This document shows, piece after piece, positions 3,254 through 9,929 of a stretch of DNA of 64,000 nucleotides (positions are counted from its first letter, which is position 1; each line of letters starts with the position of its first letter). The position numbers and the translations under genes were made by a program. Source of the stretch: an uncultured Muribaculaceae bacterium (GTDB lineage: Bacteria > Pseudomonadota > Alphaproteobacteria > Rs-D84); contig OZ246409.1 in NCBI GenBank assembly GCA_965231035.1, forward strand, positions 257,222-321,221, in the 5' to 3' direction. The notes below the pieces were generated by a model. That model did not search any database. It worked only from the letters and a program-made list of their open reading frames with translations, and had not been told where the DNA came from.

Positions 3254-6200
3254 ATGAAGAAAATTACACTGCTTTTTGCTGTTTGCTTTGCGTTGCTTGG
3301 GATGCAGAAGGTTTTTGCTGATGACAGTACAGACGCTGCACGTGCTGCAACACGAGGAACAGCGACTGTGGTTGTTTCTTCACACCAAAAATCCGAAGAT
3401 TATAATAGTTCTACAGAAACAACTTCTTTGCCCTCGTCTGCTTCAAGGTCTGTTGTTGGTGGCGTTCAAAAAAGCGACTCTTCCCGTGATAGAGCTGTAA
3501 CAAATCGTGATAATTCTATTTCTGATAAATCCAGAACAAGTCAAACAAATCCTGTCACCGTCCCAAGAAGTGCAAGTGTTCAACAGCGAACAGCCAAAAT
3601 TTCTGAAAGATCCGCTGTCAGCCGTTCTGGAATAAATCAAACAAGTAATGTTACAGTTCGCAGTTCACTGGCTGCTCGCAGTGCGTTGAAAACACAATCC
3701 CGTGGAAATATTTCTGCACGTGCAGCGACAATGGATAATGCTCCAAAACAACCTTTACCAGATACAAAATCAACAAAAACAGATAATTCAAAATCATCTT
3801 CTGTTGGTTATAAAAAATGTCGCGAAGTTTATTACGGTTGTATGGATGAATTTTGTGCAAACAAAGACACCCAACTTAAAAGATGCGCTTGTTCATCCAG
3901 AATTCACGACTTTGACTCTGTTAAAAAGAATATGTCCAATGTCGAAGATAAAATTTTAGATTTCAATCAGCGATTAGTCAGTGTGAATCTTGATAAAGAA
4001 GATGCGGCTGCAATATCCAAAGAAACCGAAGGTGAAAAAGCTTATCAACAAACTGATAAATCAGATTCAAAAAGTATTTTGGACGAAATTTCAAAAAAAT
4101 TAAAATCCAGCACAACAGATACAGATTATAACAAAAACCTTTCTGCAATATCGCTTTCGTTGGACACAGATTCGGCATTCGACAGCATAGATTCATCTTT
4201 GGGCGCATCCACAACATCCAAAGAAGGAACAGATCTTTACGATGCCGCGATTCCAGTTTGTCGCGAAATGGCGGCCGAGGTTTGTGATTCAGATGGTGCA
4301 GCAATCGCAGAAAGTGGTTACCAGATGGCAATCGAACAAGATTGTAATACTGTTGCCAAGGCTTATGAAACCCTGCAAGACCAAGCACTGACCAAGGTTC
4401 GTGAAGGAAGCGCATTACTGGATATGTCCAGATTGGATGTTCATCAAAAAGAAAATGCTGATGACATTCTTACCTGCAAAAAGAAAATGCTGACAATGAT
4501 TACAGACAGTTCTGTATGCGGTAAAAATTTAATCGAGTGTCTGGATATTTCTGGAAGATATATTGATCCTTCTACTGGCGAGGCGTTCTTGACTGAAAAT
4601 TTAATTAATATGGAAAAACTTATCACCAGACCATCAGGCAACCAGAAATGGGTCGAAGTTTCAGGAAATTCACAATTCATAACTTACTTGAATTCTAAAA
4701 AGAAATATTTGGAATCATCTATGGAAAGCTGTAAGGACATTGCTGACACTGTTTGGGATGATTTCGTCGAAGATGCGCTGGCACAAATAAAATTGGCCCA
4801 AGAAAAAAAGTTAGAAGACATGCGTCAAAGCTGTACTTCGCTTACTACACAGTGTTTAGCCGATACATCAAAATCAATTTCTGATTTTGACGCGCGCGCG
4901 CTTTCTACTTTTGGTGTAACCGCAGACAAAACAGTTAATGAAATGTGTGCTGGAATAAAAACCGCCTGCACTGCTTTACTGGAATCAACTGGTGGCGATT
5001 CGGATTGGGTCGGCGGTATGAGTGAAATTCAAACAGATAAAACATACGACACACTTATTCAGACATGCCGCGAAGTTGGCAAGGCTTGCATTATCCAAAC
5101 CTGCAAATCTGTTTCAGGAAACTTTGGATTGTGCGAAAGCGTTGATAAATCAGTTAACAGAAAATCCATTATTAATCGTGCTGCTTGTTGGTCTGACGTA
5201 ATTAAATGCGTGGCTAATGCTGGCACCAGTTCTATTGACTCGATAATGAAAAAGTTTTCCAAGACCCCCAGTTCCAGTGGCGGAAACTTTTACACAGAAA
5301 ATTATGGTGTGCAACCAACAGTAAGTAATTCTACAAGTGGCGCTGGATGTGATCCTACTTCATCAACAACCCCTCAAAATTGTATTTATGATATTTGCAC
5401 CGAGTGTGGTCAGTCTGGTCAGCCAGATTGTGCGACTTGCAGATTGGCTGAAAAAATATGGGGCAACTGCGAGTTTATACCAACAAAAACATTAGATATT
5501 GTTCCACAAAACAAAATCAAGGCGACAATTTCCAGCACCGAAACATTGCTGTCTTGGTTTGATACGAACACTGGAACAACCGATTCTGCAGAAAGCTGTC
5601 GTGATACATCATGCGGTGCCGGATTCAGGGCATTTACAACAGATGGGGTAACAACATGTTCAAAGGCTTCTGACTTTTCGTCTGACAATTTACTTTGCCC
5701 AACAAAGCAATTCTTGGTATCCCAACCTGCTTGGAAGAACTGTTGTTCTACAGAAGAATATGATGATTTTGGAAATTGTTGTCAAGATACACCAATTACA
5801 GTTTCAGGGATATCAATCTGCAGAGAAACTTCCGATATCAATGTTTTCCCTGTTGCCTCGTTTACACTCAGCAGTGACAGTAGTGTTTACAAGGCCGGGA
5901 CAAATATCATGGTTTGTGTTGGTGGGACAATAGATGTTACAACCCCCGAAACTGCTTGGCCATCAGGAAGGAATGTTAAATGTAATGGTGGACATTTTGT
6001 TATTATCAATACCACTTATGGAACATATGTCAGCCCTTATTTCAACCTTGACGATATTGGTAATCCAACAACGACGACGAATCAACATCCAACCTACCCA
6101 AGCAATTATTATTCTTTGGATTATGATGCAGCTACAAACACAAGTATAAATTGCATATATAACTTCGAAAGTAATACTTGGAATTCCTCTACAGGAAGTG

Positions 6201-6262
6201 GTGTATGTGATAAAATAACCGGGTACCCGACTAACAACAATAATCTATTTATTAAGTATTGA
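3254..6262 (+). CDS. Large secreted cysteine-rich protein, family member 1 (CMDxFC / CGxDFxNC family)
   Basis: Track ORF 3152..6262 begins with GTG inside the tRNA, so the real start is MKKITLLFAVCFALLGMQKVFA at 3254, a signal peptide. An S/T/R-rich region is followed by CREVYYGCMDEFCANKDTQLKRCACSSR, and VCGKNLIECLDISGRYIDPSTGEAF matches paralog 26113. The C-terminal third is Cys-rich. Confidence 0.7.
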   Translation: MKKITLLFAVCFALLGMQKVFADDSTDAARAATRGTATVVVSSHQKSEDYNSSTETTSLPSSASRSVVGGVQKSDSSRDRAVTNRDNSISDKSRTSQTNPVTVPRSASVQQRTAKISERSAVSRSGINQTSNVTVRSSLAARSALKTQSRGNISARAATMDNAPKQPLPDTKSTKTDNSKSSSVGYKKCREVYYGCMDEFCANKDTQLKRCACSSRIHDFDSVKKNMSNVEDKILDFNQRLVSVNLDKEDAAAISKETEGEKAYQQTDKSDSKSILDEISKKLKSSTTDTDYNKNLSAISLSLDTDSAFDSIDSSLGASTTSKEGTDLYDAAIPVCREMAAEVCDSDGAAIAESGYQMAIEQDCNTVAKAYETLQDQALTKVREGSALLDMSRLDVHQKENADDILTCKKKMLTMITDSSVCGKNLIECLDISGRYIDPSTGEAFLTENLINMEKLITRPSGNQKWVEVSGNSQFITYLNSKKKYLESSMESCKDIADTVWDDFVEDALAQIKLAQEKKLEDMRQSCTSLTTQCLADTSKSISDFDARALSTFGVTADKTVNEMCAGIKTACTALLESTGGDSDWVGGMSEIQTDKTYDTLIQTCREVGKACIIQTCKSVSGNFGLCESVDKSVNRKSIINRAACWSDVIKCVANAGTSSIDSIMKKFSKTPSSSGGNFYTENYGVQPTVSNSTSGAGCDPTSSTTPQNCIYDICTECGQSGQPDCATCRLAEKIWGNCEFIPTKTLDIVPQNKIKATISSTETLLSWFDTNTGTTDSAESCRDTSCGAGFRAFTTDGVTTCSKASDFSSDNLLCPTKQFLVSQPAWKNCCSTEEYDDFGNCCQDTPITVSGISICRETSDINVFPVASFTLSSDSSVYKAGTNIMVCVGGTIDVTTPETAWPSGRNVKCNGGHFVIINTTYGTYVSPYFNLDDIGNPTTTTNQHPTYPSNYYSLDYDAATNTSINCIYNFESNTWNSSTGSGVCDKITGYPTNNNNLFIKY

Positions 6263-6408
6263 TACCAAGCTGTTGCTTGTGGAAATAAAAACAGAATCGG
6301 TGGGGGAAAACCGGCGATAAAAAGAATCCGTATTTCGAATCTGTTACCAGAATTATTAGCTATATTCAATCAGTTATAAACAATTTAATAATATTCTTGA
6401 CTTGTTCC

Positions 6409-6900: not shown

Positions 6901-6987
6901 TTATTAAAAACACTAAAAAATTAAATCTGATGCTTGCATCAGATTTTTTTGTTGCTTAAAATAACAAAACTTCTTAAAATTCAAATT

Positions 6988-7956
6988 ATGATTAAAAAGA
7001 TTTTTTTGATTTTTGTTTTATTATTATCTGGTTCGAACGCCTTGGCAGCCGATGAGTGCTCTATATCAAATGCCACAAGTGGTTGTCTTACTGGCAAATA
7101 TTGTCTATATGATTCAACAGGAAACAGTTGTATGCCATGCCCTACTGCATATCCAAATTCATTAGTAAGTAATAATAATGAACAAACTGATTGTTATGCT
7201 TGTGCGACCAGAACCATTGCAAATGGAACTTGGGCGCCCGTCAGTCCTATATATTATCCAACAACACCAACAACATGTACCTATAACTCTGAGAATATTG
7301 CATGTACTTATATGAATTATCCTGTTCCGGATTCAACCGAGACATATGGATACAGATGTGCATTTATGATAATATTAGACGATTCCACCGGTTCCGGTGG
7401 CAGTGGAACAATATATGAAGTTTCTGGTGTAAAATATTTGAGCTCATCCGGAAATCAAATTGAAAATGTCGCAAAACCAATAAAAAGCAACAGCGTTTTT
7501 ACTGGGTATTATTCAAGTGGGAGTTCAATTGCCCAGATACCTGACAGTGGCATTTTACCAGGCAATACATATTTTGCTACCTCGACAACGCTTTTTGCAC
7601 ATTTTTCAACTTGTTCTGGGACTGGCGAACAAGGAACAATTACAAGTTCTGTCAGTGATAACACCTGTTATTATTTTATAACATGTAATGCAGGATACGA
7701 AAATACAACGAATTATAACCTTGCCACCAAAACAACGAACAGCTCTTTGTCTTGCACGCCTTGTTCTGCGGGATACTATTGCCCCGGGGGTGAACATCAA
7801 GCATGTCCTAAGGGTACAACCAGCAGTGGGGGTACAACCGCTACATCAACTGCCGCCTGCCACATGCAGGGTGGGGAAAATGGAACAAGATTTTGTGATT
7901 CTAATGGATGTTTCTATTTGCCAGATACCGCAACAATAACATCTAACTTACTATAA
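6988..7956 (+). CDS. Secreted cysteine-rich protein with ephrin-receptor-like/furin-like C-x-P-C-x-x-G-Y-Y repeats
   Basis: The internal start MIKKIFLIFVLLLSGSNALAA is a signal peptide. Motifs are CTPCSAGYYCPGGEHQACPKGT, CNAGYENTTNYNLA and SCMPCPTAYPNS. It resembles the protein at 456-725. Confidence 0.55.
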   Translation: MIKKIFLIFVLLLSGSNALAADECSISNATSGCLTGKYCLYDSTGNSCMPCPTAYPNSLVSNNNEQTDCYACATRTIANGTWAPVSPIYYPTTPTTCTYNSENIACTYMNYPVPDSTETYGYRCAFMIILDDSTGSGGSGTIYEVSGVKYLSSSGNQIENVAKPIKSNSVFTGYYSSGSSIAQIPDSGILPGNTYFATSTTLFAHFSTCSGTGEQGTITSSVSDNTCYYFITCNAGYENTTNYNLATKTTNSSLSCTPCSAGYYCPGGEHQACPKGTTSSGGTTATSTAACHMQGGENGTRFCDSNGCFYLPDTATITSNLL

Positions 7957-7994
7957 TCAACAAACCGTAATCATTATTCAATACAAATCTATCC

Positions 7995-9288
7995 TGTCCA
8001 ATATATTGGACACTTTTCGAGTGATATATTAAAGCTATGTCAAAATATATGTACATTATTCCATTGTCCAATATATTGGACAGGTTTATTTTTATTCTTA
8101 GAATTTATAATCAAATTCATAATCAGATTTATAATCTGATCTATAATCAAGACATATTCATATTATGCAGTTGTCCAATATATTGGACAAGTTTTTAAAT
8201 AACACATCAAGATTATAAAAAAGCAAACGGAAATAAAATATGAAATGTCCAATATATTGGACACTTTTTGATTGATTCGTTGATACTGTAAAAAACACAA
8301 AAACAAAAGGTGTATTGTCCAATATATTGGACAAGTTTTTAAATAACACATCAAGATTATAAAAAAGCAAACGGAAATAAAATATGAAATGTCCAATATA
8401 TTGGACACTTTTCGAGTGATATACTAAAGCTATATAAAATTATGTGCTTAAAAAACAAAAATAAAAGCCTTGATTGTCCAATATATTGGATAGGTTTGCT
8501 TAAATATATACGAATAAAAAGCAAAAATGAAAACCTTGATGTCCAATATATTAGACACTTTTATAGTGACACACTGAAGCTGTATCAAAACATATGTACA
8601 TTATTCCTTTGTCCAATATATTGGACACTTTTTGAGTGATATACTAAAGCTATATAAAATTATGTGCTTAAAAAACAAAAATAAAAGCCTTGATTGTCCA
8701 ATATATTGGATAGGTTTGCTTAAATATATACGAATAAAAAGCAAAAATGAAAACCTTGATGTCCAATATATTAGACACTTTTATAGTGACACACTGAAGC
8801 TGTATCAAAACATATGTACATTATTCCTTTGTCCAATATATTGGATAATCAAATTATTACCTATTTTCTACCTTAAATTTTATGTCAAAAAGATTTAGCA
8901 ACCGCAAAATTGTTATAAAACTTGGATTACCCGACGGCGACAAAATATTATAAAAACTGCTGCGCGAGATTCCCAAAATTTCAGGAATACTTTGTCTACG
9001 ATGGTGCGTTTTTGCTATTTCCATCAGTATATATTTTATTTTTTCTATATCTAAATTATCCAAAGCGATAGATAACTCAGATATCAAATATTGGTCAATT
9101 TCTTTATTATCAATAAAAAATTCACGGTTTATTTTTGGCTTTGATAAAAGTGAAAATCGCATAATTATTCTCCATAAAATATACGCGTATTATACAGTTG
9201 TCCAATATATTGGACAAGGTTATTTTTATTTTCAAAACCTATAAAATAAGGAATATACTTATTATAAACCTGTCCAATATATTGGACA
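7995..9288. repeat. Array of 14 copies of the 18-bp perfect palindrome TGTCCAATATATTGGACA (four copies are variants GGATA or TTAGACA) embedded in nested tandem duplications of about 144 bp and 220 bp
   Basis: Copies start at about 7995, 8065, 8172, 8246, 8316, 8390, 8475, 8540, 8610, 8695, 8760, 8830, 9199 and 9271. The 100-bp blocks 8171-8270 and 8315-8414 are identical, as are the 240-bp blocks 8390-8629 and 8610-8849. The region is AT-rich and has no credible ORFs apart from 8857-9162. Confidence 0.85.
8857..9162 (-). CDS. HigA-family HTH protein (putative addiction-module antidote, COG3636-like). It is orphaned, with no toxin gene adjacent
   Basis: The C-terminus GISRSSFYNILSPSGNPSFITILRLLNLFDIKFKV matches the conserved GMSRESLYRALSGEGNPTFSTVLKVLKALGLKL end of HigA/antidote proteins. 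A GGAG RBS is present, and the TATAAT -10 at about 9190-9195 lies 3 nt from the palindrome copy at 9199-9216. Confidence 0.7.
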   Translation of the reverse strand: MRFSLLSKPKINREFFIDNKEIDQYLISELSIALDNLDIEKIKYILMEIAKTHHRRQSIPEILGISRSSFYNILSPSGNPSFITILRLLNLFDIKFKVENR

Positions 9289-9404
9289 GGTTTATATTAT
9301 GCTTTTACACAGGCACGGACACAGATTATATAGATATAATACATATGTATGAATATTTTTGTCACCATGTGGTTAATTCCCCAGGATGACAATAAGAAAA
9401 AATT

Positions 9405-9929
9405 CTAAAAAGTTACATTTATAGTTTTTATAACTTTGTTTATTTCTTTCATTTCAGAAGATGCAAACTTTCCCAGAACCCAATCGGCTGGATCCATTTG
9501 TAATTCAACATCACGTGGATGACCAATTCCGATTCTGATTCTGTGATATTCGTTTCCAACAAATTTATCAATTGATTTTATACCGTTGTGCCCTGCACTG
9601 CCGCCGCCTGTTTTTTCACGAATCGAACCAACTGGTAAATCCATGTCGTCGTGTATCACAACCAAATTTTCAATTGGTATTTTGTAAAACTGCATCAATG
9701 ATTGAACAGGCACACCGCTGTTATTCATAAAAGTCTGAGGCTTGGCAAAAATAACTTTACGACCATTGACATCAACACTGGTTGTCAAAGCATCTTTTTC
9801 TTTTTTCCACGTAACATTTTCACCCGCCAAAAAATCCACAGCAACAAATCCAACATTATGTCTTGTCGCAGAATACTTGTCACCAGGATTTCCCAGACCA
9901 ACTATTAAAAGAGGTTTATTTTCTTGCAC
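9405..9929 (-). CDS. pth: Peptidyl-tRNA hydrolase
   Basis: LLIVGLGNPGDKYSATRHNVGF and HNGIKS motifs are present. The probable GTG start precedes QENKPLLIVGL; the track ORF extends upstream to 10034 through a non-conserved leader. Confidence 0.8.
   Translation of the reverse strand: MQENKPLLIVGLGNPGDKYSATRHNVGFVAVDFLAGENVTWKKEKDALTTSVDVNGRKVIFAKPQTFMNNSGVPVQSLMQFYKIPIENLVVIHDDMDLPVGSIREKTGGGSAGHNGIKSIDKFVGNEYHRIRIGIGHPRDVELQMDPADWVLGKFASSEMKEINKVIKTINVTF

Follow-up and report, generated by a model that had tools for sequence, protein, structure and literature searches.

A toxin-free antitoxin homologue and its matched palindromes in uncultured Alphaproteobacteria: a probable autoregulated repressor with a multi-site operator set

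Introduction

What does an antitoxin-like gene do when no toxin gene accompanies it? This question is raised by a 64,000-nucleotide stretch of contig OZ246409.1 (assembly GCA_965231035.1) from an uncultured alphaproteobacterium, which we refer to as the window, where a gene on the minus strand (8857-9162) encodes a 101-amino-acid protein of a helix-turn-helix (HTH) family and lies among repeated copies of an 18-bp palindrome. A first reading of the bare letters (the original prediction) had proposed that an antitoxin has been co-opted as a standalone repressor with the palindrome as its operator or, alternatively, that the toxin partner has been lost. We analyzed the gene, its palindromes, and the homologous loci of related genomes and metagenomes, and we conclude that the product is probably an autoregulated HTH repressor, exapted from HI1420/COG3636 antitoxins, that would work without a toxin and with a multi-site operator set.

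Results

The gene encodes a divergent member of the HI1420/COG3636 family

The product of the open reading frame (ORF) 8857-9162(-) ends in ...GISRSSFYNILSPSGNPSFITILRLLNLFDIKFKVENR, in which the original prediction had recognized the C-terminus of HigA/COG3636-type antidote proteins. Profile searches bore this out: the product matched PF21716 (dnstrm_HI1420, "probable addiction module antidote protein") with 32.2 bits, above the gathering cut-off of 27 (E 9.9e-8), and the match spanned residues 24-98 of the protein and positions 15-88 of the 90 in the profile. Against the NCBIfam model TIGR02684 (a hypothetical equivalog) the product scored 32.2 bits, which is under the cut-off of 53.7, indicating that it is a divergent relative and not an equivalog. 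All Pfam and NCBIfam matches of the protein were to HTH families, with no catalytic domain detected, and the gene is single-copy within the window. A word-indexed search retrieved 39 homologues, 58-97% identical and of almost constant length. Those bearing a source name come from metagenome-assembled genomes (MAGs) of uncultured Alphaproteobacteria or Rickettsiales, and some are named "DNA-binding phage protein" by JGI. At E<=1e-10, just 4 clusters were found among 1.84 billion cluster representatives, followed by a gap to the canonical members at approximately 35% identity. Genome and metagenome scans returned approximately 26 distinct homologous loci, and the N-terminus of the clade is strongly conserved (MRFSLLSKPKI.R..F).

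The toxin is missing from the whole clade

COG3657 and COG3636 appear in PMC2701414 as partners in a toxin-antitoxin system, and the RelE-like genes (95-108 amino acids) that lie directly upstream of distant homologues in other phyla fit this pairing. Upstream of the window gene, the 240 bp that the original prediction had described as toxin-free are indeed so: the longest ORF on the strand of the gene in 9163-9404 measures at most 37 amino acids. We then used a hidden Markov model (HMM) of 8 HI1419-type toxins adjoining distant homologues, for which 6 control toxins were recovered at E 1e-40 to 1e-48. When the six frames of the whole window and of 26 close-family loci were searched, nothing better than E 0.13 was obtained, and no toxin frame was detected upstream of 9162 or elsewhere in the 64 kb. 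This indicates that the toxin is missing clade-wide and has not been lost recently from one genome. As far as sequence comparison can reach, both halves of the original prediction are borne out, namely the standalone gene and, as described below, the palindrome as its operator.

Distant HI1420-like genes of Dehalococcoidia MAGs (L016, L017, L021, L022, and L029, at approximately 6001-6320 in each) likewise have no upstream toxin. These genes directly precede large serine recombinase genes (approximately 520-560 amino acids) and occur in several copies per genome, a pattern suggesting that integrative elements have recruited this HTH family on a separate occasion.

A palindrome overlaps the promoter of the gene at every tabulated locus

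The palindrome TGTCCAATATATTGGACA occurs 14 times in the window with 0-1 mismatch, every copy being located inside 7995-9288, against a chance expectation (dinucleotide shuffles of the window) of 0.06 copies on average and 1 at maximum. Two copies lie upstream of the gene (9199-9216 and 9271-9288), beginning exactly where the original prediction had placed them, one follows the stop codon, and 11 lie further downstream (Table 1). On the minus strand, the proximal palindrome (9216-9199) is followed by ACTG, TATAAT (9194-9189), 15 nt, GGAG (9173-9170), 7 nt, and the ATG at 9162. A consensus promoter scan identified TTGTCC - 17 nt - TATAAT (10/12 match), in which the palindrome itself supplies the -35 hexamer. 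The order of these elements is that of the original prediction, and its distances need correction: the gap between palindrome and TATAAT, given as 3 nt, is 4 nt unless the palindrome is counted as the 20-bp TTGTCC...GGACAA, and that between TATAAT and GGAG is 15 instead of approximately 20 nt. In the same way, the copy at 8830 is positioned as predicted, but it starts 9 nt past the stop codon instead of 10 bp and has one mismatch.

The same layout was found in the relatives. An upstream TGTC-N10-GACA palindrome was present in all 22 relatives tabulated (47-97% identical), at 30-58 bp between palindrome end and ATG (35-39 bp in about half), usually with a TATAAT-like box 3-5 nt past the palindrome (mostly 4; exact TATAAT in approximately 17) and a GGAG-type ribosome-binding site next. 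Most homologous loci carry a second palindrome copy 2-34 nt after the stop codon. Further upstream, L001 has a second palindrome at about the same distance as the distal copy of the window (O2), and L039 has a degenerate distal copy followed by GATA-TATAAT, an arrangement like that of O2. In the window and at the 22 homologous loci alike, the palindrome provides the -35 and the spacer, so that the core promoter of the gene is overlapped by a site with dyad symmetry. The stretch of nucleotide homology that the window shares with the other loci extends from the upstream palindrome to the post-stop palindrome and no further (query 233-622), indicating that the conserved unit consists of palindrome, promoter, gene, and palindrome and measures approximately 390 bp. 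Over 126 palindromes, -10-like hexamers peaked at an offset of 4 nt (33 sides versus 0-11 at other offsets), and an ORF started 20-70 nt beyond half of the palindrome sides with a -10 box versus 12% of those without.

Table 1. Positions of the features discussed, in window coordinates unless a locus is named.
Feature	Position	Strand	Remarks
Whole block between pth and the Flg_new-like gene (two putative operators, gene, array)	7957..9404		Absent from otherwise syntenic relatives
HI1420/COG3636-type HTH protein gene, no toxin partner	8857..9162	-	101-aa ORF, PF21716 match, 39 homologues
Shine-Dalgarno GGAG, 7 nt before ATG (9162-9160)	9170..9173	-	Read from sequence; conserved in homologues
TATAAT, the -10 box belonging to the proximal promoter, 4 nt beyond O1	9189..9194	-	Promoter scan; kept in nearly all homologues
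Putative proximal operator O1, perfect 18-bp palindrome (20 bp with flanking T/A), over -35 and spacer	9199..9216		Position occupied in 22/22 homologous loci
-35-like hexamer TTGTCC, formed by the palindrome itself	9212..9217	-	Promoter scan
Second TATAAT, 4 nt (GGTT) past O2; possible distal tandem promoter	9261..9266	-	Read from sequence
Putative distal operator O2, core of the 34-nt perfect hairpin 9263-9296	9271..9288		72 bp centre-to-centre from O1
Post-stop palindrome copy, one mismatch (TATCC... in the direction of the gene), 9 nt after stop	8830..8847		Kept in most homologous loci
Array of 12 palindrome copies downstream of the gene	7995..8847		65-107 bp centre-to-centre; few AT-rich spacer types (b-g)
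Recent 220-bp tandem duplication, 2.1 copies, 99% identical, three palindrome units	8390..8845		Tandem Repeats Finder
~190-nt element copy	L045 6141-6420	+	
~190-nt element copy	L060 540-850	-	
~190-nt element copy	L058 1290-1540	-	
~190-nt element copy	L057 2290-2560	-	
~190-nt element copy	L009 2890-3180	+	
~190-nt element copy	L025 3500-3800	+	

The inner bases of the palindrome track the recognition helix

The outer TGTC/GACA of the palindromes is constant, and the inner ten bases form classes that track the recognition helix of the HTH protein. At least 8 palindrome sequence classes are present in the clade, each with its own recognition-helix variant, and the base changes are mirrored in both half-sites (Table 2). 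Where one genome holds two paralogues, as the MAG with L008 and L009 and the 69-kb contig with P0002 and P0031, each paralogue keeps its own palindrome class. Among 94 further palindromes at these loci, 76 match the class of the resident operator (<=1 mismatch), while 5000 label shuffles gave a mean of 19.5 and a maximum of 60. The conserved module contains no gene other than that of the HTH protein, which is therefore the simplest carrier of the site specificity. The claim that the palindrome is the operator thus finds support, at the level of sequence, in the helix-matched classes and the 76 matching sites as well as in the geometry of the 22 loci.

Table 2. Recognition-helix variants of the HTH protein and the inner ten bases of the accompanying palindromes.
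Recognition helix	Inner ten bases	Remarks
RSSFYN(I/M)L	CAATATATTG	Class of the window (class A)
RPGFYNIL	TAATATATTA	
KSGFYNML	CTTTATAAAG	Class B
KSGFYKML	CACTATAGTG	Class C
R(P/A)G(F/Y)YK	T(A/G)CTATAGTA	
RSGFYRIL	TATTATAATA	
RSGFHKML	CGCTATAGCG	
RSGFYLML	CATAATTATG	P0040, most distant member (47% identity); same two positions relative to the gene

In L044 (3431-3563), four palindromes of three classes (CAATATATTG, CTTTATAATG, CAATATATTG, and CACAATAGTG) lie 34-42 bp apart, and asymmetric "hybrid" sites, of which CATTATAAAG is an example, are found again at three further loci (L012, L045, and L083). In the prophage of L001 (10440-10570), a class-C palindrome (TGTCCACTATAGTGGACA) is located between dnaB and the terminase gene and is embedded in repeated GCTAGCGACTA-like motifs; its class differs from that of the resident class-A HTH gene.

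The downstream array differs between strains and the whole block is absent from syntenic relatives

The small ORFs of the array are translations of the repeat itself and not genes, no ORF of substance is present, and an Rfam search of the array returned no family, only sub-threshold microRNA-hairpin noise from the palindromes. The spacers are of 6 types that recur within the array, 5 of which recur in the sister strain. Their order is b c d b c d e f e g b in the window and h c e f f h c d c g in L039, that is, types are shared and the order is different. This reordering fits unequal recombination at the palindromes, although such repeats are hard to assemble. The short array of L038 was considered as a copy-number change and rejected, because it coincides with a scaffold gap (a run of N). 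We also rejected an array of clustered regularly interspaced short palindromic repeats (CRISPR), which would have repeats of approximately 23-50 nt, mostly unique spacers, and cas genes nearby: the repeats here are of 18 bp, the spacers recur, the neighbors are housekeeping genes with no cas genes among them, and the Rfam search gave no CRISPR match. The longest spacer of the array (type g) contains a 12-bp tandem repeat, AATTTATAATCA, in 4.1 copies (8102-8150); this spacer type is also found in L038 and L039, with one more AATTTATAATCA unit.

Strains with a 97%-identical HTH protein have the same neighborhood, in which S6, S18, L9, RecO, DsbA, PolA, an outer-membrane protein, Pth, the HTH gene, the array, and the Flg_new-like gene follow each other. 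The block occupies the same site in L038-L040 and in L014, where the HTH protein is 58% identical, the sites are of another class, and the gene comes directly after pth as well. In genomes with a Pth 70-74% identical, synteny is kept and the block is missing: pth abuts the next gene in L085 and L086, and a lone palindrome, TGTCTACCTGGGTAGACA, marks the junction of pth and the next gene in L087 (7570-7587) and L088 (1384-1401), with no HTH gene. The locus beside pth is either an old one with losses or a repeated insertion point. The lone palindrome is flanked by A7 and T5, and its outer 7 nt are those of the TGTCTAC...GTAGACA operator class; it could be a relic of module deletion or represent the kind of terminator from which the operators arose. 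The convergent gene on the other side of the array (6934-7956, plus strand) encodes a Cys-rich, Thr/Ser-rich protein with a signal-peptide-like N-terminus, orthologues of which give a weak Flg_new match and range from 332 to 477 amino acids among the relatives.

Single accessory genes lie between palindromes in relatives

In relatives, the segments between palindromes are either short and "empty" (approximately 47-110 bp) or contain one gene (occasionally two) on either strand. The bracketed genes encode a Polbeta/NTP_transf_2 nucleotidyltransferase (L058), a GNAT protein and an MFS transporter (L045), chorismate mutase and a P-loop protein (L013), Nmad3 (L010), an AAA-type kinase (L056), and APH(6) and APH phosphotransferases (L012), in addition to several proteins without any family. 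The HTH gene has no conserved downstream partner, the downstream cassette proteins being mutually non-homologous. L012 exceeds L044 by three genes that lie between palindromes, next to a flanking gene that is orthologous in the two.

Known types of gene-bracketing sites were compared with the palindromes. Integron attC sites are of 57-141 bp and imperfect, and dif sites have an 11-6-11 structure with ATAA/TTAT inner ends. An integron array was rejected, the sites here being perfect palindromes of 18-24 bp and no integrase domain being present among the Pfam-annotated neighbors (approximately 10 kb per locus). A dif/Xer site was rejected because the inner arms are TCCA/TGGA instead of ATAA/TTAT and the class differences fall where the Xer arms would be. 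A junction of miniature inverted-repeat transposable elements, in which two terminal inverted repeats abut, was likewise rejected, since simple loci hold isolated whole palindromes without a partner half-site.

Six relatives also contain a conserved non-coding element of approximately 190 nt with the core ...AAGTGGTAGATGCGCGCTGACCTACAATGYGTGCGCTTGTCGCC.CATAA..GCCACCAAA.., which is absent from the window (Table 1). At all six loci a palindrome of the class found locally is located not more than approximately 90 nt upstream of the element, and most copies finish with a terminator hairpin that differs from copy to copy. As a candidate tmRNA or tRNA it was rejected, because neither ARAGORN nor Rfam detected anything, and alifold support for a structure was weak.

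Discussion

Altogether, these results can be brought together in a model for how the HTH protein would act. A dimer of the 101-amino-acid product would bind the dyad TTGTCCAATATATTGGACAA. Because the proximal palindrome constitutes the -35 hexamer (TTGTCC) and the spacer of the promoter of the gene, a dimer bound at 9199-9216 would exclude RNA polymerase and thereby impose negative autoregulation. The second operator, with its own TATAAT, would act 72 bp upstream, and the post-stop copy and the 11 others would provide extra binding sites that, as RNA, would also fold into weak hairpins with T-runs behind them. Unequal recombination between palindromes is the most likely origin of the array, which would probably function as a repressor sink and/or as an insulating terminator stack at the convergent junction with the next gene. 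In the relatives, the same protein-site pair would control or insulate the single accessory genes between palindromes; in the window only empty units are left.

Several observations weigh against this model. Because gene and site are passed on together as a single module, common descent could account for some of their covariation. The same ancestry confounds the mutual information computed for protein columns versus site bases, which is weak support and not specific to the helix: N72 ranked near the top for half-site position 7, but so did non-helix columns. A -10 box at the fixed offset is found on only 34 of 261 palindrome sides, which means that most copies are not promoters. To assign the 12-copy array a function as sink, terminator stack, or both is to guess, and the array structures come from assemblies of repetitive DNA. 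The AlphaFold2 (AF2) model of the product is all-helical (H56-62, H67-74, and H82-91), with a moderate mean predicted local distance difference test (pLDDT) score of only 64. Foldseek found nothing in the PDB at E<=0.001 with this model (the best matches being HipB and restriction-modification C-proteins at E ~1-3), and when the family profile was run against PDB sequences no meaningful match came up, so that structure adds only that the protein is helical and HTH-like. Finally, 9 terminator-like sites are present in 7900-9450 versus 0.4 expected, an enrichment so strong that an RNA-level role could explain the symmetry of the palindromes.

This last point is at the heart of the reading in which the palindromes are structural elements, such as bidirectional terminators or repetitive extragenic palindromic (REP)-like hairpins, that are co-inherited with the gene and kept uniform by gene conversion while the HTH protein binds elsewhere. 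Structural elements would also account for the A-runs that precede and the T-runs that follow many copies, for the 34-nt hairpin 9263-9296 (RNA fold of -21 to -22 kcal/mol, z = -6.9, on either strand), and for the lone A/T-flanked related palindrome that a syntenic relative without the HTH gene holds between the same convergent genes. We nevertheless consider this reading quite improbable. The promoter-proximal copy sits in non-transcribed -35/spacer DNA at every locus, the 34-nt hairpin is the sole strong one, and the core palindromes form weak hairpins (-7.6 to -9 kcal/mol, z = -1.5 to -2.8). The post-stop copy folds as RNA in the direction of the gene no better than shuffled sequence (-4.5 kcal/mol, z = -0.4), which favors a DNA-level role. 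Furthermore, distinct classes stay with their own paralogue in one genome, so that the module must itself encode whatever determines the class, and it contains no gene but the HTH gene. It may well be that the palindromes have a role as DNA and also as RNA. It is similarly improbable that the locus is a remnant of prophage immunity, that is, a phage repressor with stoperator-like sites at a decayed prophage edge. The 86%-identical homologue of L001 does lie inside a prophage (capsid, terminase, Mu F, and DnaB) with 7 class-A or near-class-A sites around it, some homologues carry the JGI phage-protein name, the distant orphan relatives of Dehalococcoidia precede large serine recombinases, and in Cluster A mycobacteriophages a repressor and its multi-site operators are known to co-evolve (PMC6550527). 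Near the window gene, however, there are no phage genes, its neighbors being pth, polA, and the genes of the outer-membrane protein and of the Cys-rich secreted protein; most other loci are chromosomal as well, amid housekeeping genes, and a phage record collection yielded one distant canonical match only, as did a plasmid record collection. A centromere-like partition site, with the gene and its 12 tandem palindrome units mimicking sopB-sopC of the F plasmid, would explain why the array starts immediately downstream of the gene of its presumed binding protein. This we regard as exceedingly improbable, given that no ParA/ParM-type NTPase adjoins the gene in the window or in the gene-called loci, that the locus is chromosomal and shows no turn in GC skew, that the units are heterogeneous in length and sequence, and that the sites of relatives bracket genes instead of forming a single array. 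These three readings are weaker than that of an autoregulated repressor.

A reading that overlaps with the repressor model holds that the palindromes are chiefly recombination sites delimiting mobile single-gene cassettes, in the manner of integron attC or Xer dif sites, with the HTH gene as one cassette supplying site recognition or regulation and the array of the window as empty cassettes. It would explain the tight bracketing of single unrelated genes, the lack of homology between any two downstream cassette proteins, the three extra genes of L012 relative to L044, the exact end of the HTH-module homology at its two palindromes, the lack of the block in syntenic relatives (with a single related palindrome left in one of them), and the reordered and duplicated spacer units between the window and L039. 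We hold it to be unlikely because the only recombinase-type domains among the Pfam-annotated neighbors (approximately 10 kb per locus) were the phage Mu F and terminase-RNaseH domains of the L001 prophage, no cassette was found in two different arrays, and 18-bp perfect palindromes resemble neither attC nor dif; in addition, a promoter/terminator element of an accessory regulon would give gene-sized site spacing too. A broader idea, to which we give a small but real chance, is that the HTH-palindrome pairs are a cassette platform of uncultured gut Alphaproteobacteria, in which the dyads would be portable promoter-operator-terminator elements and crossover points at once. If this were true, accessory genes (aminoglycoside-type kinases, nucleotidyltransferases, acetyltransferases, transporters, and the conserved ~190-nt element) would be gained, lost, and shuffled at the dyads, the antitoxin homologue would be the specificity determinant, radiated into at least 8 mutually orthogonal pairs, and the 12-unit array would be a stack of empty cassettes.

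As an autoregulated repressor, which we regard as the probable identity of the product, the protein would provide a natural example of an antitoxin gene exapted to a free-standing regulator across a clade, beyond one decayed locus. The at least 8 closely related pairs differ by few recognition-helix residues and by two to three mirrored bases per half-site, and such a series could be useful for deciphering the HTH recognition code or for building orthogonal genetic switches. The bracketed resistance-type and other accessory genes, together with the reordered units, hint at an unrecognized organization, and perhaps exchange, of accessory genes in uncultured gut Alphaproteobacteria.

Several known systems share part of these features. 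In the F plasmid, sopC consists of 12 tandem units with a palindromic site directly downstream of the gene of the binding protein, sopB. The locus described here has the same number of tandem palindromic units directly downstream of the gene of a presumed binding protein, and differs in having no partition ATPase, heterogeneous units, a protein that is not of the ParB family, and a chromosomal location. In REP/REPIN-RAYT systems, a gene is flanked by its own palindrome class, other copies are scattered or clustered, and gene clades match palindrome classes (PMC3116915, PMC3337134); the RAYTs are transposases that mobilize REPINs. The flanking by own-class palindromes and the pairing of gene clades with classes are found here as well, whereas the protein is a 101-amino-acid HTH protein and not a Y1 (HUH) transposase, and the copies of the window are confined to a 1.3-kb locus. 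Cluster A mycobacteriophages have a small repressor and many short intergenic sites, whose specificities co-evolve (PMC6550527, PMC9283540), and these stoperators are asymmetric, 13-14 bp long, bound by monomers, and oriented with transcription (PMC9283540). One small presumed repressor, many short cognate intergenic sites, and co-evolving specificity are common to both systems; here, in contrast, the sites are perfect dyads, the protein belongs to another family, and most loci are chromosomal.

The HI1419/HI1420 type II toxin-antitoxin pairs are related in that the product fits the antidote model nearly full-length, including the C-terminal ...GNP.F.T...L...L motif of the canonical members; unlike them, the clade of the window has no toxin, is separated by the ~35% identity gap, and has its own N-terminus and a sub-equivalog score. 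Self-repressing antitoxins such as HigA and MqsA are also small HTH proteins with a dyad site over the promoter of their own gene, and MqsA acts at other promoters. The binding of HigA to palindromic sequences of the promoter that drives its own gene is described in PMC6987408. Antitoxins that repress themselves are already known, and so are orphan regulators of antitoxin type. Unusual here are the loss of the toxin throughout the clade, the radiation into at least 8 protein-site pairs that match, and the operator arrays together with palindrome-bracketed accessory genes: the gene has no toxin co-repressor and 14 sites instead of one or two, it belongs to a clade in which the specificities of protein and site vary together, and the sites flank unrelated genes too.

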